32,000 bases of DNA. Source: Candidatus Thorarchaeota archaeon (GTDB taxonomy: Archaea > Asgardarchaeota > Heimdallarchaeia > Hodarchaeales > Hodarchaeaceae). A program made the translations under genes and the position numbers. Of the stretch, positions 1,307-18,038 are shown one piece after another. The notes beneath the pieces were generated by a model. That model saw nothing but the letters and a program-made list of their open reading frames with translations, was not told the origin of the DNA and did not search any database. Location: assembly GCA_048882505.1 (NCBI GenBank), contig JBHLRO010000010.1, positions 30,001 through 62,000 on the forward strand, in the 5' to 3' direction. Each line of letters starts with the position of its first letter. The first letter of the stretch is position 1.

Positions 1307-2962
1307 CTACATCATTGGTGGCATGCCACCCATGCCACCCATACCGCCCATTCCGCCTGGGGGCATTCCTCCAGGGCCACCTGGGGGGCCTTCCATACTT
1401 TTACTCTGAATCACATCGTCAATTCGTAGTATTAGCTCTGCCGCTTCTCGGGCCGAGAATAGAGCTTGTCTCTTTACTCTTAGTGGTTCAATGATTCCCG
1501 CAGTATAGGCGTCCACATTCTTTCCTGTTTGCACATCGATTCCAGTATTCTTTTCACCTTTTTCATGAGCTGCTCGCAACTCAACTAGGACATCGATTGG
1601 ATCAAGACCTGCGTTTTCCGCAAGGGTACGGGGAATAATCTCAAGGGCGTCTGCAAATGCATCTACTGCCATCTGCTCACGGCCTTTGACCGATCCTGCA
1701 AACTCTTTCAGTCCGCGATACAATTCAACCTCAGGAGCGCCTGCGCCTGCTACGGCCCAGCCATCTTCAAGACAATCTCTTACTACACACAGAGCATCAT
1801 GGAGAGCGCGATCAGCTTCGTCAGTGACGTACTTTGTTCCTCCGCGGATCATAATCGAGACAGATTTGGGATTGGGACAATCACGTACGTATATGAGCTT
1901 ATCATCGCCAATCTGAACTTCTTCTATAAGTCCAGCAGATCCGAGATCATTAGCTGACAAGTCCTTAAGGTTTGTGACGATTCTTCCACCTGTTGCTTTG
2001 CTTAGTCGTTCCATATCGCTTTTCTTGACCCTTCGAACTGCAGCAATCCCTTCTTTAGCGAGGAAGTGCTGAGCCAGATCATCGATTCCTTTTTGGCAAA
2101 GAACAACATTTGCTCCTGCATTTTTGACTGTATCAACCATTTCACGGATCATTGACTGTTCTTGATCGAGGAAGGCATCCATCATAGCGGCGTCAGTAAT
2201 CCTGATCTTGGCGTCGAACTCCGTCTTTTTGATCTCCAAAGCTAGATCGATAAGGGCAATTTTAGCATCTGTAACGGTACGAGGCATTCGTTGATTCACT
2301 ATTTCCTTGTCCAGGACTATTCCATGGATTAATTCCGAGTCGGTTAATCCCTTGCCCTGTTTTTGAATGACTGAAATCATGTCAAGGTCAACGGTGTTTT
2401 CTTCGTCAAGCACTGCTTTAGCAGCTTCCACTGCGATGGTTGCCAAAATATCCTTGGCTCCACCTGTAGATTTAGAGTTAAGACTGGTTCGAGCGACATT
2501 CTTAAGAACCTCCTCATCATTTGGATCGATCTTATTGGCGATCGCCTTGAGGATCTCACTGCTTTTGTCACTTGCCAGCTTATATCCCCCTAAAATCACA
2601 GTAGGGTGAATCTTCTGATCCAACAGTTTCTCAGCGCGTTTGAGGAGTTCGCCGGCAATAATCACGCTTGTAGTTGTCCCATCACCAACTTCCTGATCTT
2701 GGGTTTTGGCGACTTGAACAAGCATTTTAGCAGCGGGATGCTGGACATCGATCTCATCTAATATTGTGGCGCCATCATTGGTGATTACAACATCACCCAG
2801 CGAATCTACGAGAAGTTTGTCCATTCCACGTGGCCCTAAGGCGCTGCGAACTGCATCAGCGACAGCAATTGCGGCCTGAATGTTGTTTCGTTGAGCATCT
2901 CGGCCGCGGGAGCGCTCAGTTCCTTCTTTTAGGATAATAACTGGTTGTCCACCTAGTTGCAT
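1307..2962 (-). CDS. ths: Thermosome (group II chaperonin) subunit, about 551 aa
   Basis: [30 protein letters not shown] and a GGM-repeat C-tail ([16 protein letters not shown]). Start moved to ATG 2962 ([14 protein letters not shown]), which has GAGGT upstream; the track start is 2977. Confidence 0.98.
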
Positions 2963-3296
2963 GGTAGTTAACCTCATCTTTTAATATTCAAAAAAAATAA
3001 ACTCTTTACAATGGTTTACTCGATGTTCTCCCAATAGACGGAGAACTAAAGAGGTATTACCCTCACGACTGTCGATTTTAATAGAGGGTTATAAACAATA
3101 TCCGGAAGCAGTTAGCGCCGAATGGATTCTAAAACCTTGTATGATAGAGGCCCAACCTACCGGAGATTTGAACGATTTTCTGGCGTATAATAACGAAACC
3201 TGCTCTGATTGGGAATAGATCAAAGAATTTGCGTTTAATTGGTAGAAAATTCTAAGACTCGGACTTATTTCGAACAAGAGGACTAATAAGGGAGCT

Positions 3297-3820: not shown

Positions 3821-6013
3821 CTATTCCCCCCCTCTTTTTTTCTTGTTCTGATGTTTTTTTGGCTTTTTCCTTGCATTCCGAGATCTGGCGATGTTTGCAA
3901 GCATTTCTCGGAGAAGCTCCATGTCATTATAGCTTGATTCCAGGATTTCTTCAAAAATAATCTTATCTAACATCAGCCGATCAGGTTGTTCCATCTCGTC
4001 CCAAATAGGCAGAATTTTTCTGGTACTCATCCGTTGCAAAATTCTACGGATTTTATTCTTCTGTTCTAGTAGGATCCTATTCGGATTAAGCATTGGTAAG
4101 CTTTTAAGTTCATATACGCGAGTTTGATTTGATATGGTGCCATCACGATTCTCTATGTATCGCCCTCCAAATTCAATCATCATCATTCCGAAGGTCGAAT
4201 TAAGGATCCCCAAAATGATTGGTATTTCGTCTGGATTCTGGGGAAAGACATTATAAAATCCGTAATTACTCATAAAACACTTGTTTAAAATGAGATCTTT
4301 TTGGGAAGGATGATATTGAAAGGTGATTTCACGGTTGGTTTGAATTTCAAAATGAAGTAAGGGTGCTGCAATACCATAATCAATATTGTACCATTCTTTG
4401 CCTGATTTTGTTATTCTGTTTTGACACGTTGGCCGAGTACTATACGGTTTGTTTGGTGGAAATCCCTCCCCAAATTCAATGTACTTTAGAACTTTCTTGT
4501 TCTCCTTCTTTAGCTCCTCCTTGGATTTTGATACTGTTAGGCAGTATCCATCATTTGTGCTAATCCTGATTTTGGACTGGAATTTGAATTTCCAAAGAAT
4601 GGGACTAATAAATTCACTCTCTATTTCGAACTTGAGTGACCGTAAATCCTTTTTACCTTGGATTATCATTTTTTGAGCATTTAATTCTTTTACCTCGAAA
4701 TTAATGTTCGGAAAATAAAAGAACTCATTGGCTCCACTCTTTAGGCCTGTGGTTATACTAGCGATATCTCCTAGGTTAACAATGAGGCCCTTTGTTTTAT
4801 TAGACTCCAGAACATGGTAGAAGGATTTTGGAGCAGTTAAAAACTTACCCCATTTTTCTTCTGGTAACAATTCTTTTTGATTAATTGATAGAATGCGCAT
4901 TGTTTCTGTTTCTTCGATATTAATTCGGCCGAGATTTACAGAATCTCGATTGCGGCCCGCGTTCCTATTTGAATTTTCGACTTTGCGTACAAACTCATCA
5001 ATCTGGGGCCACCTCTTCTTGAGATCTCTAACCTTTTTTTGGCCAATTGAAGGGAAAATTTCTTCTAGGTTTGATTTTATCTGTACAAAGCTTACTTGAT
5101 GCTTTTCCCTCTCGGAACGTCTAGTTTCTGTCTCTAAAATTAGAATACACGGGATCATTTGTGCATCAGTGAACCATTTTTCGTTTAAAGATTCAATCAA
5201 AGCAATCAGTTTAAAATTCCTCAATAGAAAACGCTTTAGTTCAATACCGAAGGAGACATCTAAAAAAGAACGCAACATGACATAGCCAATACGATTTCCA
5301 TTATTGCCATCAATGAAACTGGCACCGTGCACAAGGAAATGCGCATAAATGCCCGTTCGAGAATTTAAGGAAACGTCATAATCCCTTGATGTAACTTCGT
5401 TTAACTTGACCTTATATTCTTCATCTAGAAGTTCTTGACGAGAATAGGGTGGATTTCCGATTACGACATCAATGGTTGGTAATTGAGAAGATTCTGAGGA
5501 AGAGACATCAAAAAAATCCGCTGTGATTATTTGTGCTAGATTTCTATTGAAATCCGGCACACGTGATATTAGATTGATATGGGCAAGCTGACTAGCAGGC
5601 TCTGAGCGTTCTATGCCCCAAATTTGGGTTAGTATTTTCTGATTTAGTCCTTGAGGGTCAAGATATTTCAGACGATAGAAAGTTCGGACGAGAAAGCTAC
5701 CCGTTCCACATGAGGGGTCTAATACTGTGACATTAGAGTTTTTTACACAAAAACCTAGGATTAGATCTACAATATCTGATCGAGTATAATGCTGACCGAA
5801 ACAATATCGCTCCCGATCAGGGATTAGGCGAACGAGGATTTCTCCCAAAATATCAATGGGTACCTTGTATAAAATCTTCGAGGTTCTTTCAGTCAAGCCT
5901 TTTCTCTGATTTTCAATGATTTGGAAGACAAGATCCCGTAAAGTGGCATATTCTTCTGCATTAATCGAGAGGGAGCCTGTTCCGAGTTCGTAATCGTAAT
6001 GACCCTGATTCAA
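3821..6013 (-). CDS. N6-adenine DNA methyltransferase (gamma class, TaqI/Eco57I-like) with C-terminal target-recognition region and no evident nuclease domain
   Basis: GQHYT, motif I VLDPSCGTGSFL, motif IV IGNPPY, later FTDAQMIPCIL and ITTGLKSGANEFF. TTG start. Only about 70 aa precede GQHYT. Confidence 0.9.
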   Translation of the reverse strand: MNQGHYDYELGTGSLSINAEEYATLRDLVFQIIENQRKGLTERTSKILYKVPIDILGEILVRLIPDRERYCFGQHYTRSDIVDLILGFCVKNSNVTVLDPSCGTGSFLVRTFYRLKYLDPQGLNQKILTQIWGIERSEPASQLAHINLISRVPDFNRNLAQIITADFFDVSSSESSQLPTIDVVIGNPPYSRQELLDEEYKVKLNEVTSRDYDVSLNSRTGIYAHFLVHGASFIDGNNGNRIGYVMLRSFLDVSFGIELKRFLLRNFKLIALIESLNEKWFTDAQMIPCILILETETRRSEREKHQVSFVQIKSNLEEIFPSIGQKKVRDLKKRWPQIDEFVRKVENSNRNAGRNRDSVNLGRINIEETETMRILSINQKELLPEEKWGKFLTAPKSFYHVLESNKTKGLIVNLGDIASITTGLKSGANEFFYFPNINFEVKELNAQKMIIQGKKDLRSLKFEIESEFISPILWKFKFQSKIRISTNDGYCLTVSKSKEELKKENKKVLKYIEFGEGFPPNKPYSTRPTCQNRITKSGKEWYNIDYGIAAPLLHFEIQTNREITFQYHPSQKDLILNKCFMSNYGFYNVFPQNPDEIPIILGILNSTFGMMMIEFGGRYIENRDGTISNQTRVYELKSLPMLNPNRILLEQKNKIRRILQRMSTRKILPIWDEMEQPDRLMLDKIIFEEILESSYNDMELLREMLANIARSRNARKKPKKHQNKKKRGGE

Positions 6014-6068: not shown

Positions 6069-6311
6069 TTAATGCATCGTATGGCGGAGTTTTACCTCCT
6101 CGATAAGGGAGGAAAAAGCCTCGTTTCGCAGTTTGCATGTGATAAGTGCGAATCCACGATCATCGGGGAAGCAATGAACTTCGAGATTGTTATGAAGGAT
6201 AACCTGGGTCGCATCCCTGACTTCAATGGGGGCCTCCAATTCCTTGGCGAGGTCCTTCATAAATTCTCTCCCCTTTTCCCACGTAGAAATCCTGAATTTC
6301 AGACGTTTTAT
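6069..6311 (-). CDS. Hypothetical protein, about 80 aa (probable ATA start at 6311; first in-frame ATG outside the PLD overlap is 6260)
   Basis: Protein-like frame KRLKFRISTWEKGREFMKDLAKELEAPIEVRDATQVILHNNLEVHCFPDDRGFALITCKLRNEAFSSLIEEVKLRHTMH fills the PLD-MTase gap. GGAGG (6324-6320) is 8 nt before an in-frame ATA overlapping the PLD stop. Confidence 0.7.
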   Translation of the reverse strand: MKRLKFRISTWEKGREFMKDLAKELEAPIEVRDATQVILHNNLEVHCFPDDRGFALITCKLRNEAFSSLIEEVKLRHTMH

Positions 6312-8461
6312 TTTGTTCGCCTCCGGGAGCGTATGAGGGGTAGCCAAACCAGGGCCACCAATATGATTTCCCATTGCCAAGGTGTATCTTCCGATGAGAC
6401 CATAGTGGATATGAAACCCGGGTCAGGTGTCCCGACTGTAAAATCGGAAGCTGAGTTTGTATCCCTATCCGCAGGTACACGAAGTAATGCTTCCCCTTCG
6501 TTAGGAGTAGATAACACTTCAGAACCATCGGGGGCGGAAGCTGAACCATAAGCCACCACATCTACATATTGTCCTAGGACATCGAGGAGTTGTACAAAAT
6601 CTCCTGATTGCACCAGTGTGAACGGGAGTTCGATGTCAGCTGTGAATCCATAAGCACCCTGGAATCCAGTTTCGTTTCGCGCTATGATCATCACTTGCCC
6701 TGCGGTAATCCTAGTACCGATCGGAAAAGTGTGTAGGTGATCCTCGTCTCCCACCTGCCACCCCTCAATTAACAAGGAGAAGGAGTAGCTATTCGCTATC
6801 TCGAAATACTCGCCCTCCGAGTCTAATACAGGACTAGCAGGATTTGGCAAGAGTTCAGTGATCAAAAATTTCCAGCTTTCACCAGCTGGTTGATTCACAA
6901 CATTCACAGTTGCTGAATCTGTAAATGTTCCCAAGGAAACTGAGATTGCGCGGACCTCAAAGGCATGTATTCCATTTGAAAGAGAAACAGTATCATAAGA
7001 TATAGTGAACGAGTCGTTATCAAGAGTTACGCTGGTGAAACTGCCAGTATCCCATCGGTAGGAAACAGTTGAATCGTTTAGACCAGAAATCTGTCCACCA
7101 AGGGTAACACTTCCCATAACCACCTCTGCCTGAGAAAAACTGGTTTGTTTTATACCTATCGGGAGTTCCCAAGGCGAAGCTGCCGCTATGTCTTTATCCC
7201 AGACCTCTGTTTTAAAAAATGAGGCGATATCGGTTGCATCGTGGATCGCAATACCCATGTCACGATTGGTACTGGAGCTCCCATAGCTAGTTGCATTGGG
7301 AGTGACGGATCGTGGGGACCAGTTACCACTGTAAACAAACGTATGCTTTCCATCTATAATCCAATACTTGTTATGATAGTAATTTAATCCTGTTGTGGAG
7401 TTGTAAACGGGTATTAAATTATCCACAAGAGATTGAGCGGCCTGTTTCGTATCTAAATTCTCATCTGATCCGACTCTTCGATTGGAAATTAGGACATGGA
7501 TGTCCATATTTGGATTGGCCTTTTTAAGATCGATAAGGGTCTTATTAAACTCAGGGCGGCTTATCGTGTACATGGAGACATAGACAGAGGTTGTCGCGGC
7601 CTTTAGGTAGCGGAAAATTACATCATCCGCATTATCTGGATTGGTAAAGAGGGTTACGTTATAAGTGCCAGTAAAGTTGGTACGAGGGATGTTTGTATGG
7701 CTGGCAAATCCACTTAGAATCTTTGCATTATTACCTGATGTGTAAATCTTAGCGGGTGGAGCACGCGTAATGGGGGCTGGGATGGGGATTTCGCCATCTG
7801 CCCAATCTTCTTCAAAAATCGATTTGTAGTAGTTCGTCACCGTGGCACTCTGAATGACTATCCCCGCTTCGCGATTATATTTAAACGCATTTTCTCCAAA
7901 ATTAATAGAACTAAGGAGAGTCACCTTGTCATCAATTAGGACCAGCTTATTGTGGGTGGAGGAAAGCCAACTGTTGTCTTTTGTACTACTCTGAGTCCCC
8001 ATCCACCGTACCTCTATCCCCTTACTTAGCAAATAGTCTGTAACATTATCCGAATCGGCATCATCCCTGACTTGGATCCGAACATTTACCCCTCGACTCT
8101 GATTGGCATCCACAATTGCCCGGACTATAGGATTCGCATCAGTATCCCATTCGGTATACCAGGTGCTGTTAAATTGGGTGATATATTGGTTTTGAATCTC
8201 TATTGAGGTGTTGGCTCGGCTAAGCCACCAGACATGAATATCCAATGCGTTATCAGGAGTAAACATTGGACTTAGGGTCATTGATTCTTTGGTGTTGAGA
8301 GCGGGAAAAGTTGAAGTATAGGTAGTCGGACTTTGGATTCTTGACCGACTCATTGTAGGTTGGGGTGATGTAGATTCCCCATTGATTAAATTAAATGCAA
8401 TGAGTAACAAACCTATAATGCAAAAAACTCCTAAGAGGGAGGGGGTTCCTTTTTTCATCAT
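6308..8461 (-). CDS. Secreted/surface-anchored phospholipase D-like protein (2 HKD motifs) + Ig-like domain + lamin-tail domain + C-terminal TM/basic anchor
   Basis: N-terminal signal (MMKKG-hydrophobic). HNKLVLIDDK...SSINF...NREAG and YHNKYWIIDGK...SGNW...NRDMG. LTD signature FLITELLPNP...EGEYFEIAN...IEGWQV. Ends WEIILVALVWLPLIRSRRRTK. Confidence 0.9.
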   Translation of the reverse strand: MMKKGTPSLLGVFCIIGLLLIAFNLINGESTSPQPTMSRSRIQSPTTYTSTFPALNTKESMTLSPMFTPDNALDIHVWWLSRANTSIEIQNQYITQFNSTWYTEWDTDANPIVRAIVDANQSRGVNVRIQVRDDADSDNVTDYLLSKGIEVRWMGTQSSTKDNSWLSSTHNKLVLIDDKVTLLSSINFGENAFKYNREAGIVIQSATVTNYYKSIFEEDWADGEIPIPAPITRAPPAKIYTSGNNAKILSGFASHTNIPRTNFTGTYNVTLFTNPDNADDVIFRYLKAATTSVYVSMYTISRPEFNKTLIDLKKANPNMDIHVLISNRRVGSDENLDTKQAAQSLVDNLIPVYNSTTGLNYYHNKYWIIDGKHTFVYSGNWSPRSVTPNATSYGSSSTNRDMGIAIHDATDIASFFKTEVWDKDIAAASPWELPIGIKQTSFSQAEVVMGSVTLGGQISGLNDSTVSYRWDTGSFTSVTLDNDSFTISYDTVSLSNGIHAFEVRAISVSLGTFTDSATVNVVNQPAGESWKFLITELLPNPASPVLDSEGEYFEIANSYSFSLLIEGWQVGDEDHLHTFPIGTRITAGQVMIIARNETGFQGAYGFTADIELPFTLVQSGDFVQLLDVLGQYVDVVAYGSASAPDGSEVLSTPNEGEALLRVPADRDTNSASDFTVGTPDPGFISTMVSSEDTPWQWEIILVALVWLPLIRSRRRTK

Positions 8462-16827: not shown

Positions 16828-17292
16828 TTAGGCTCCTTCGTTTAATATTTGTGCAATTGTTTCTTTAAATTCCTGCAATATAGATCGGCTTTCGTTACCT
16901 TTCTTCTCTATACGTACACCATAGTCGGTTTGGATCTGATTCAGGGTAGTCCGACATTCCGTTTCGCATTTTGGTGAGCAATCATGGACATACCATACTA
17001 CAATGTCCCCACCTGCTAATATAATGTACACTAAGGTGTTATGAATCCAATCAAACCCTGTTAAAATCCCTGTTCCTGTATGGATTGTTCTGGTACTCGT
17101 ATCCAATCTTAAAAGATTGGCAATTTTTTCTAATTCTCGTTTAATCTTTTTGCTAACAATAGTTTTAGTTTTTCGTATGTTGCTTTCGGATTTATCCAAA
17201 TCCTTTGCAATTTGACCGTTTGACATGCCCGCATTGACCCGTCTGAACACCTCAAACTCGTGTGGTGACAGGAATTTTGGTCGTTGCTCCAT
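16828..17292 (-). CDS. LuxR/sigma70-r4-like HTH regulator with C-terminal H-x-C-x3-C-x3-C cluster
   Basis: LSPHEFEVFRRVNAGMSNGQIAKDLDKSESNIRKT (HTH) and VVWYVHDCSPKCETEC. 3 nt upstream of the first PH gene. Confidence 0.75.
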   Translation of the reverse strand: MEQRPKFLSPHEFEVFRRVNAGMSNGQIAKDLDKSESNIRKTKTIVSKKIKRELEKIANLLRLDTSTRTIHTGTGILTGFDWIHNTLVYIILAGGDIVVWYVHDCSPKCETECRTTLNQIQTDYGVRIEKKGNESRSILQEFKETIAQILNEGA

Positions 17293-17513
17293 TTCGGCTT
17301 TCTCACGTCATTTGTGCTTTACCGCGCTACCGCTTGATAGTAACAAGCTACCATTTTTTAAAGCTCGCTATTGCGGATGAATTTCTGAAGAAGGTAAAAA
17401 AGGCCAAAGATGGTTCTGTTCGGCGTTTAAAGTTTAAATTGCGATTAAATCGTCCGTCATATTGTATTTACAACTTCCAATGAAATAAGCGAGGATAAAG
17501 GAGGAAACCAAGG

Positions 17514-18038
17514 ATGAGGCATAAAATACCTTCCGTGATAACAATTATTCTCTTCCTAATCATTGGTTTTACGACCGTTGCGACGAGAGTAACTTCATAT
17601 CATGTTCCACCTTTAAAGGACGAGGTTAATGCGGTGATTGCGACCGCTGATGGAGGTTATCTCCTGGCTGGATCTACAGACTCACTTGGGACTAGCAACA
17701 GAGACATGTGGCTGGTCAAGACCGATGGCCAGGGCACCGAGCAATGGAACCAGACCTTTGGCGGACCAGAAGAGGATTGGGCTAAAGCGGTGATTGCGAC
17801 CGCTGATGGAGGCTATCTCCTGGCTGGATCTACAGACTCACTTGGGACTAGCAACAGAGACATGTGGCTGGTCAAGACCGATGGCCAGGGAACTGAGCAA
17901 TGGAATCGAACCTTTGGCGGACCAAGCGAGACCACAACAACTGGAGCTTCAACTTCATTTCCGGACTTGTCAGTTATGATCATCTCCATTGTCACGCTCG
18001 CATTATTCAGGCCTAAACGTCACCGTCTACGGGATTGA
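17514..18038 (+). CDS. Secreted protein with two beta-propeller-type repeats and a C-terminal T-rich/TM/basic anchor
   Basis: Signal peptide; 2x AVIATADGGYLLAGSTDSLGTSNRDMWLVKTDGQGTEQWNxTFGGP; ends TTTTGASTSFPDLSVMIISIVTLALFRPKRHRLRD. GGAGG upstream. Confidence 0.85.
   Translation: MRHKIPSVITIILFLIIGFTTVATRVTSYHVPPLKDEVNAVIATADGGYLLAGSTDSLGTSNRDMWLVKTDGQGTEQWNQTFGGPEEDWAKAVIATADGGYLLAGSTDSLGTSNRDMWLVKTDGQGTEQWNRTFGGPSETTTTGASTSFPDLSVMIISIVTLALFRPKRHRLRD
17631..17924 (+). repeat. Near-identical direct repeat, 138-bp units (17631-17768 and 17787-17924), 156-bp period
   Basis: Both units read GCGGTGATTGCGACCGCTGATGGAGG...TTTGGCGGACCA, with only a few differences (ggttat/ggctat, ggcacc/ggaact, aaccag/aatcga). 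Confidence 0.95.

Follow-up and report, generated by a model that had tools for sequence, protein, structure and literature searches.

The window, the whole 32,000-nucleotide stretch of a Hodarchaeales genome analysed here, carries on its minus strand two co-directed genes that overlap by four nucleotides. The upstream gene (8461..6308, minus strand; 717 aa in the list of open reading frames; Pfam PLDc_2, PLDc and LTD) specifies a PLD-like, membrane-anchored protein that carries a lamin-tail domain (LTD), has a TM helix at the C-terminus and reads RSRRRTK* in its cytoplasmic tail; the gene ends at the TAA stop at 6308..6310. The downstream gene, a small conserved gene at 6069..6311 (minus strand), was delineated by its translation, an ortholog alignment and an AF2 model, and comprises 80 codons plus a TAA stop (6071-6069). 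At its head stands an ATA codon (6309..6311, minus strand), the proposed (re)initiation codon, which shares two bases with the PLD stop and thus yields a 4-nt stop/start overlap, ATAA, at 6311-6308. Within the PLD tail, in the codons CGG AGG, lies a GGAGG Shine-Dalgarno (SD) motif (6320..6324, minus strand) that is complementary to the 3′ end of the 16S rRNA, ...GGAUCACCUCC, and separated from the ATA by a spacer of 8 nt (cgaacaaa, 6319-6312, minus strand). An earlier note on this DNA had described this same layout, with GGAGG, 8 nt and an ATA overlapping the PLD TAA at the head of an 80-codon frame, and the sequence agrees; it had also placed an ATG track start at 6380, where the codon is in fact TTG, the in-frame ATG being at 6374.

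The motif occupies the position expected of a functional SD in this genome, where the consensus GGAGGTGA lies between -14 and -7 relative to confident ATG starts and marks close operon junctions 2-4 times as often as leading genes. Only 3.8% of the Arg-Arg dicodons in this genome are spelled xGG-AGG, so the presence of GGAGG in the PLD tail is not explained by Arg-Arg coding. A canonical restart codon (ATG, GTG or TTG, giving NTGA) is absent: ATA stands here, and ATA or GTA in 17 relatives.

The AF2 model of the small protein (pLDDT 88.6) displays a beta-alpha-beta4-alpha fold, in which beta-1 spans residues 2-8 and alpha-1 residues 11-25. Fold searches with this model returned matches that span residues 1-80 as a whole domain, and these were to the generic beta-alpha-beta4-alpha fold only (KA1 / TBP-like / spermine-synthase N-domain, Z up to 8.9), so that no function can be assigned to the small protein. 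A PLD-family gene lies upstream in 9/9 related loci checked, with the LTD present or absent. The comparative data indicate that the small gene is a real conserved gene, encoding a partner of the upstream membrane PLD.

Start codon of the small gene

The gene callers' start is the ATG of Met18 (codon 18; 6258..6260, minus strand), which gives the annotated 63-aa product. A second canonical option is offered by the in-frame TTG (6380) and ATG (6374) farther upstream (6372..6380, minus strand), which would yield 101-103 aa. Translation from either of these canonical starts could draw on several features: a weak SD-like GGGGAG lies 7-8 nt upstream of ATG 6260, most orthologs keep Met18, and in-frame TTG and ATG/GTG codons occur upstream in this genome and its closest relative. 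Selection nevertheless argues strongly against it. Among pairs of non-ATG orthologs, codons 2-17 yielded pS 0.53 and pN 0.10, i.e., a dN/dS of 0.12, comparable with the 0.16 of the rest of the gene (codons 19-60), and codon 3, which encodes Arg, is written with five different codons among seven GTA species. These values indicate that purifying selection acts at the protein level on codons 2-17. This segment holds the four residues that are invariant in the ortholog alignment (K5, W11, G14 and F17), and in the confident model it supplies strand beta-1 and half of helix alpha-1, leaving Met18 internal, in the middle of that helix. Furthermore, four orthologs carry I or L in place of Met18, and two lack Met altogether.

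The upstream option fares no better. Set against the closest relative, the 37 codons ahead of the ATA carry 14 nonsynonymous and 0 synonymous differences when read in the small-gene frame, but 5 nonsynonymous and 7 synonymous ones when read in the PLD frame; past the ATA, the small-gene frame shows 3 synonymous and 0 nonsynonymous differences. Selection thus changes frame at the PLD/small-gene junction, and the stretch that holds TTG 6380 and ATG 6374, which codes for the PLD TM helix, is without selection in the small-gene frame. In most orthologs, this extension is closed by an in-frame stop 0-7 codons ahead of the junction (a TAG 4 codons upstream in seven loci, a TAA directly before the ATA in L112, and a TAA one codon before the GTA in L115). 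Eight loci (L003, L004, L006, L007, L011, L111, L112 and L115) have no canonical start in the interval that runs from the in-frame stop upstream to the conserved N-terminus, and in L011 and L014 there is no ATG, GTG or TTG anywhere in frame from the junction. We accordingly rejected the upstream codons as starts and regard a canonical start at either place as highly improbable.

Together, the comparisons place the N-terminus of the small protein exactly at the ATA codon 6311-6309. The alignment of residues 1-17, which the earlier note had proposed as a check, revealed that the orthologs do not start at the MKDL Met, and the 17 protein-like codons that it had noticed before ATG 6260 appear to be translated. 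Its suspicion that gene callers misplace such starts was likewise borne out, as database entries of 55-67 aa, the window's product included, begin at Met18. We judge the ATA junction to be functional because of this comparative evidence and not because of motif frequency.

Variation of the junction among orthologs

Our comparison covered 33 distinct orthologous loci, drawn from genomes and metagenomes of Hodarchaeales and the Heimdall group; scans of sequence collections gave six new loci, of which five were used. The homologous first codon is ATG in 7 of the 33 loci, GTG in 1, ATA in 11 (window included) and GTA in 7, while in the remaining 7 an ATG stands one codon upstream (5 loci) or three codons downstream (2 loci). 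The window's ATA is thus a near-cognate codon at a position where eight orthologs have a canonical ATG or GTG. All 18 ATA/GTA junctions carry (A)GGAGG, with a spacer of 8 nt (7 nt in one), and in all 18 the start codon and the PLD stop form the 4-nt RTA|R overlap. Among the 15 junctions with canonical starts, by comparison, the SD varies between AGG and AGGAGG, spacers measure 3-17 nt, and the arrangement relative to the PLD stop goes from an 8-nt overlap to a 22-nt gap. The series indicates that SD, spacer and stop overlap turn invariant exactly where the start codon is weak.

In the two loci with the ATG three codons downstream (L010 and L012), the PLD stop has shifted along with the start, re-creating ATGA, and the GGAGG lies 15-17 nt from that start, so that the PLD tail could account for part of the GGAGG conservation. 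The ortholog series amounts to a natural mutagenesis in which ATGA gives way to ATAA/ATAG and then to GTAA, before returning to a new ATGA, now three codons farther downstream. At five of the seven GTA loci, an in-frame ATY precedes the GTA by two codons and lies just 2 nt past the SD, so that the exact restart codon in those loci is ambiguous.

The tree (PLD tail plus small protein) was distorted by the two PLD architectures, with and without LTD, and we used only its well-supported sister pairs. The ATA/GTA junction cases all stem from one genus and are not fully independent.

A probable restart at the stop codon

We consider it probable, with moderate confidence, that the small gene is translated by an SD-anchored restart, at the AUA or GUA, of ribosomes that have just terminated on PLD. 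Here, a ribosome would complete PLD and terminate at the UAA, whereupon its small subunit would remain on the mRNA, tethered through base pairing between the 16S rRNA 3′ end and the GGAGG 8 nt upstream, and initiator tRNA would be set on the overlapping AUA (GUA in sister species). Overall, this would be translational coupling of the termination-reinitiation kind, with less stringent demands on the start codon. We infer that the restart is performed by the terminating ribosome, as opposed to one that the SD recruits de novo, and that the small protein begins with Met.

A first rival is de novo initiation directed by the SD, where free small subunits would bind the GGAGG and start at the near-cognate AUA regardless of PLD termination, the overlap being inherited from an ancestral ATGA. 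Several observations speak for such a route: SD and spacer are at the genome optimum, and this genome has near-cognate starts behind SDs without a stop overlap, namely gpmA (ATC/ATT), menG (ATA behind AGGTGAG) and C3:65548, whose ATC start is found in two genomes. A further one comes from a companion junction within the window (25553..25569, minus strand), where GGAGG (25569-25565) is followed after 9 nt by an ATA (25555-25553) that overlaps a TAG and starts a saccharopine-dehydrogenase-like Rossmann gene. This second instance of the GGAGG-N8/9-ATA(stop) layout had been pointed out by the earlier note and is indeed present; its orthologs have ATG at the ATA position in 7/7 cases and GGAGG in 0/7, so that at this junction GGAGG occurs only in the ATA-bearing genome. 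De novo initiation, however, does not sit well with the exact 4-nt overlap in 18/18 non-canonical junctions, given that the canonical ones range from a 22-nt gap to an 8-nt overlap, nor with the PLD stop having moved with the start in L010 and L012. We hold it to be rather unlikely. Termination coupling and de novo SD-led initiation are inseparable from sequence alone.

A programmed -1 ribosomal frameshift at the final sense codon of PLD (A_AAA_UAA) would instead produce a fusion of PLD and the small domain, with ATA/GTA read as Ile/Val by elongator tRNAs. The small gene does lie in the -1 frame with respect to PLD; that final PLD codon reads AAA or AAG in 16/18 loci, with perfect re-pairing of tRNA-Lys possible in the window; and I/V/M at the first codon resembles an ordinary conservative substitution. 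An upstream SD can, moreover, stimulate frameshifting in bacteria. Yet re-pairing in the P site is 3/3 in only 4/18 junctions, i.e., there is no conserved slippery site, and it drops to 0/3 in L004 (CGA to ACG) and L009 (AGA to GAG), whose genes are equally conserved. A conserved downstream structure is also lacking, as RNAalifold on the 18 junctions (-45 to +90) gave 0 pairs and single-sequence folds had z-scores of -1.8 to +1.4. In the ATG orthologs, the small gene is set apart from PLD by 1-16 nt, hence the small protein works as a free polypeptide. A search of the longer database entries found no fused PLD-small-domain proteins, which is weak evidence against a frameshift. Taken together, we deem frameshifting very improbable.

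A restart independent of initiator tRNA could also be envisaged, where the SD-tethered ribosome slips by one base after peptide release and takes up translation again with Ile- or Val-tRNA in the A site, leaving an N-terminal Ile or Val. It would account for the fact that the purine-U-A pattern alone is kept, and for GUA, whose match to the initiator anticodon is limited to the middle base and a wobble pair; Lys as the last PLD codon in 16/18 loci would fit as well. Such a restart is, however, without known precedent in cellular translation and superfluous for explaining the data, and the A/G alternation is also expected from transition-biased mutation of a weak start. We give it hardly any credence. 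The more sweeping proposition, that in Hodarchaeales an SD-tethered post-termination ribosome restarts on the overlapping codon almost whatever its identity (AUA/GUA), perhaps without initiator tRNA, as a cellular counterpart of viral TURBS reinitiation, strikes us as quite improbable, if conceivable. An ARAGORN check for tRNAs found one initiator-like tRNA-Met (CAT) and could establish nothing unusual from the only 19-39 tRNAs recovered, Asgard tRNAs being rich in introns.

Rarity, known counterparts and meaning

The junction type is rare. The earlier note had supposed that this lineage may use AUA reinitiation routinely; our counts do not support this general claim, in contrast to the specific one about the small gene, which the orthologs strongly favour. 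Throughout the 4.3-Mb genome, an SD-N8/9-ATA-stop-overlap junction followed by a real gene occurs only twice, each time in the window, and the genome-wide motif count that the note had proposed as a check revealed a layout no commoner than chance in this genome. Where a downstream gene follows in the overlap frame, an A precedes the TAA/TAG of the junction in 31% of cases, against a background of 32-34%, i.e., there is no excess. A census of SD-preceded codons ahead of the first canonical starts likewise gave no signal for ATA (18 observed versus 15.6 expected), with ACG, CTG, ATT and ATC slightly but nonsignificantly up. The trinucleotide profile behind 8,681 GGAGG sites had hardly any ATG peak; since most of these sites are coding, this test is underpowered. 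A pattern scan (SD 5-mer, N2-15, codon overlapping a stop) returned GTA/ATA matches at 7 nt that were mostly ordinary TAATG or TAGTG one-base overlaps. A GGAGG-N8-GTAA match on contig 2 (188143) was false, lying inside a 798-aa ORF, and two other matches had downstream frames that are non-coding-like. About 1-2% of the genes sampled against one relative seem to be without a canonical start.

Prokaryotic near-cognate starts behind an SD are the AUU, AUA, AUC and CUG codons of translation table 11, an example being the AUU of E. coli infC. The junction resembles these in having a single-mismatch codon at the orthologs' ATG position, a strong SD and an optimal spacing; it differs in that the codon is kept across many species, interconverts with GUA (no table-11 start), and is always locked to a stop overlap. 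GUA is two positions off AUG and not a recognised start codon.

Termination-reinitiation at 4-nt overlaps, aided by intragenic SDs, is experimentally established in an archaeon (PMC6728339): in Haloferax volcanii, downstream translation depends on upstream translation, and an SD often helps (Huber et al. 2019, PMC6728339; 2023, PMC10666635). Our gene pair shares with such ATGA/TGATG coupled pairs the co-directed genes, the 4-nt overlap and the intragenic SD at start-codon distance (PMC6728339, PMC10666635). Unlike them, it has AUA (GUA in relatives) as restart codon and ATAA, ATAG or GTAA in place of NTGA as overlap. These overlaps fall outside the sets counted by Huber et al. (PMC6728339, PMC10666635), and the coupling proposed here is putative. 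For GUA, as far as the account in PMC2268962 goes, a parallel is provided by an initiation-codon mutant of E. coli recJ for which IF3 mutations act as suppressors (Haggerty & Lovett 1997, as cited in PMC2268962); there too, the GUA start belongs to a gene apparently coupled by reinitiation to an upstream ORF, but that laboratory mutant needs a mutated fidelity factor, whereas GUA is natural here in at least seven sequences. A mechanistic analogy, without homology, may further be drawn to the TURBS termination-reinitiation of caliciviruses and of influenza B BM2, which involves pairing with helix 26 of 18S rRNA and eIF3 (PMC3035654). In both, a motif just upstream of a stop/start overlap pairs with the rRNA of the small subunit and keeps that subunit tethered after termination (PMC3035654; proposed here), but TURBS is eukaryotic and viral, while our case is a cellular archaeal operon with an ordinary SD/anti-SD pair.

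Prokaryotic gene callers all assume ATG, GTG or TTG starts, and wherever the start is ATA or GTA, the small gene loses 17 residues, a beta-strand and half a helix, in annotation. By the same token, ~1-2% of Hodarchaeales proteins may carry wrong N-termini in the databases used for eukaryogenesis studies. The junction suggests that start-codon selection becomes less strict under termination-reinitiation, here in an archaeon whose initiation factors are eukaryote-like. If true, GUA would join the list of natural start codons, and a restart on almost any codon, should that improbable reading hold, would operate in the archaeal lineage closest to eukaryotes.

The N-terminus of the small protein

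The PLD gene of the window (8461..6308, minus strand; 717 aa by ORF and domain search) encodes a membrane-anchored phospholipase-D-like protein with an N-terminal signal or transmembrane (TM) segment, two PLD-type domains, a lamin-tail domain (LTD), a C-terminal TM helix, and the tail RSRRRTK, and its final codons are CGG AGG CGA ACA AAA TAA, ending at 6308. One base ahead of this TAA, on the same strand, opens an ATA (6311-6309) that is the first codon of an 80-codon frame running to a stop at 6071-6069, and a GGAGG (6324-6320) lies 8 nt ahead of the ATA. The product of this small gene had no match in a Pfam search. The first in-frame ATG past the ATA is codon 18 (ATG 6260), and TTG 6380 and ATG 6374 lie upstream in the same frame, inside the PLD gene; the earlier note had read an ATG at 6380, where the codon is TTG. 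A gene for an Eco57I/MmeI-type N6-adenine DNA methylase (3821-6013, minus strand; 730 aa, apparent TTG start) follows the small gene at a distance of 56 nt.

When related genomes were searched in six frames, 20 of the 40 relatives proved to carry the small gene, with all matches starting at query residues 1-3. Species-representative genomes and metagenomes yielded 33 distinct loci for comparison: at the position homologous to the ATA, 11 had ATA, 7 GTA, 7 ATG, and 1 GTG, while an ATG stood one codon upstream of this position in 5 and three codons downstream in 2. All ATA and GTA cases came from one genus; the more distant families had ATG or GTG without exception, and the N-terminus of the family is therefore fixed at the ATA-homologous position. 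In an alignment of the orthologs, K5, W11, G14, and F17, all N-terminal to Met18, were invariant, and Met18 itself was replaced by I or L in four sequences. Two loci (L011 and L014) contained no ATG, GTG, or TTG at all between junction and stop. In-frame stops also closely preceded the junction: a TAA directly before the ATA in locus L112, a TAA one codon ahead of the GTA in locus L115, and a TAG four codons upstream in seven loci. In the GTA species, we infer the exact restart codon.

Substitution patterns gave the same picture. Across nine ortholog pairs, all without ATG, codons 2-17 showed pS 0.53 and pN 0.10 (dN/dS about 0.12), with a dN/dS of 0.16 for codons 19-60, and Arg codon 3 was spelled AGG, CGG, CGA, CGC, CGT, or AGA among the seven GTA loci; in those genes, translation must therefore start no later than codon 2. 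In a comparison with the closest relative, the stretch of 37 codons ahead of the ATA differed at 14 codons in the small-gene frame, 14 of 14 nonsynonymously, whereas the PLD frame of the same stretch carried 7 synonymous and 5 nonsynonymous differences, and the small frame just downstream of the ATA carried 3 synonymous and none nonsynonymous. Selection thus changes frame exactly at the junction, which rules out TTG 6380 and ATG 6374 as starts. In an AlphaFold model built on the alignment (pLDDT 88.6), strand beta-1 spans residues 2-8 and helix alpha-1 residues 11-25, so that Met18 would fall mid-helix, and structural neighbors with a common beta-alpha-beta4-alpha fold align across residues 1-80.

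The proposal that the protein begins at the ATA and not at Met18 is thus upheld by the 33-locus comparison, the invariant residues, and the low dN/dS. So is the suspicion that gene callers misplace the start: database homologs comprise full-length entries of 71-81 aa from ATG-type genes, plus one of 91 aa from an upstream ATG, and entries of 55-67 aa that start at Met18 or later, the window's own product among them.

Anatomy of the junction and mode of restart

In all 18 ATA/GTA junctions, (A)GGAGG stood 8 nt ahead of the start (7 nt where a longer match, GGAGGT, shortens the spacer), and the start codon overlapped the PLD stop by 4 nt, as ATAA, ATAG, or GTAA. The 15 canonical junctions ranged from AGG to AGGAGG in their Shine-Dalgarno (SD) match, from 3 to 17 nt in spacer, and in geometry between the extremes of a 22-nt gap and an 8-nt overlap; in two species, a new ATG three codons further downstream had become the start and the PLD stop had shifted along, restoring ATGA. 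The GGAGG is encoded by Arg codons of the PLD tail. Since AGG makes up only 14% of Arg codons in this genome and xGG-AGG only 3.8% of Arg-Arg dicodons, while synonymous change between these lineages is close to saturation, the GGAGG is selected as nucleotides. Genome-wide (4.32 Mb, 41% GC, the window lying on contig 10; 16S rRNA 3′ end ...GGAUCACCUCC), the SD consensus GGAGGTGA, centered between -14 and -7 relative to confident ATG starts, occurred in 9% of leading genes, against 23% of starts that follow another gene by 0-15 nt and 43% of one-base overlaps; close junctions carried it 2-4 times more commonly.

The simplest account is that the SD anchors a restart where stop and start overlap, with less stringent demands on the restart codon. 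Termination-reinitiation has been demonstrated at ATGA pairs of Haloferax volcanii and E. coli (PMC6728339), which the present junction would resemble in process but not in its relaxed codon. Reinitiation at viral TURBS persists with a mutated AUG, possibly at an adjacent AUA (PMC3035654), and IF3 mutations suppress a GUA start mutant of E. coli recJ, a gene apparently translated through re-initiation (as cited in PMC2268962); by analogy, these cases lend support to relaxed codon choice in reinitiation. The strong SD may instead direct de novo initiation at AUA. A -1 frameshift yielding a PLD-small-domain fusion is unlikely: the tRNA could re-pair perfectly at just 4 of the 18 junctions and not at all at two of them, the ATG-type orthologs are physically apart from PLD, and searches for conserved RNA structure and, among longer database proteins, for fused forms found none.

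Evolution of the start codon and the gene pair

L112 and L115, a well-supported sister pair, have ATA and GTA, respectively, and both codons occur within the group of locus L003; with ATA and GTA intermixed in the tree, the A/G change occurred more than once. The rest of the tree is weak, since two architectures occur in the PLD partner, PLD-PLD-TM lacking LTD and PLD-(Ig)-LTD-TM (compared in L003 and L017 versus L014, L016, and L043-L048), with the small gene downstream in both. Three families of the class keep this gene order. Probably, the small protein is cytoplasmic and partners the PLD tail or the membrane; in fold searches with its model, the fold proved too generic for further functional assignment.

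Non-canonical starts across the genome

The second junction singled out earlier (25553-25569, minus strand), at a saccharopine-dehydrogenase-like gene, is genuine, seven orthologs having ATG exactly at the ATA position. Its GGAGG occurs only in this genome and is lacking in all seven, which looks as though a strong SD was gained in compensation when the ATG was lost. The broader suggestion of routine AUA reinitiation in the lineage did not hold. At junctions whose overlap frame held a scored gene, A preceded TAA/TAG in 31% versus a background of 32-34%, whereas it preceded TGA in 45% versus 28%, as expected for ATGA; SD-preceded ATA showed no enrichment ahead of the first canonical starts. A direct genome scan for SD-N8/9-ATA-stop overlaps returned only two credible junctions, both in the window, a third match being rejected as internal to a 798-aa ORF. 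Canonical 4-nt overlaps numbered 64 unambiguous cases, 9 with an SD.

Non-canonical starts also appeared away from stop overlaps. Comparing stop-to-stop ORFs of this genome with 1.2 Mb of the complete relative CP070695.1 gave about 440 ortholog pairs. In some 6-9 of these, the conserved N-terminus in this genome lay upstream of any ATG, GTG, or TTG and was unconnected with a stop overlap, which by rough hand curation would put non-canonical starts at 1-2% of sampled genes. Among these, a gpmA-like phosphoglycerate mutase gene (...YKIVLLRHGES...; contig C9, ORF 16834-17644, plus strand, outside the window) has ATC/ATT opposite the relative's ATG, behind GGAGAGGAG, and about 79 aligned residues without ATG, GTG, or TTG; menG has ATA behind AGGTGAG, and another gene has CTG opposite the relative's TTG. 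Separately, a zinc-ribbon protein (CxxC...CPHCG; contig C1, minus strand, ORF 373284-373845) aligns with its relative over >100 residues before any canonical start. An ORF on contig C51 (minus strand, 1489-3151) and its counterpart in the relative genome G009 (751692-753321) share a conserved N-terminal KRAxxLEE right after an in-frame TGA, which could be a selenocysteine codon, a read-through codon, or the mark of a split gene; a tRNA-SeC is among the ARAGORN predictions for the genome. Last, and again one of the 6-9 cases, a longin/roadblock-like gene (N-terminus IVYAVY...; contig C3, ORF 65548-66217, plus strand; counterpart G009 931413-932076) seems to have an ATC start preceded by GGAGAGG in both genomes; if so, a non-canonical start would be conserved between species.
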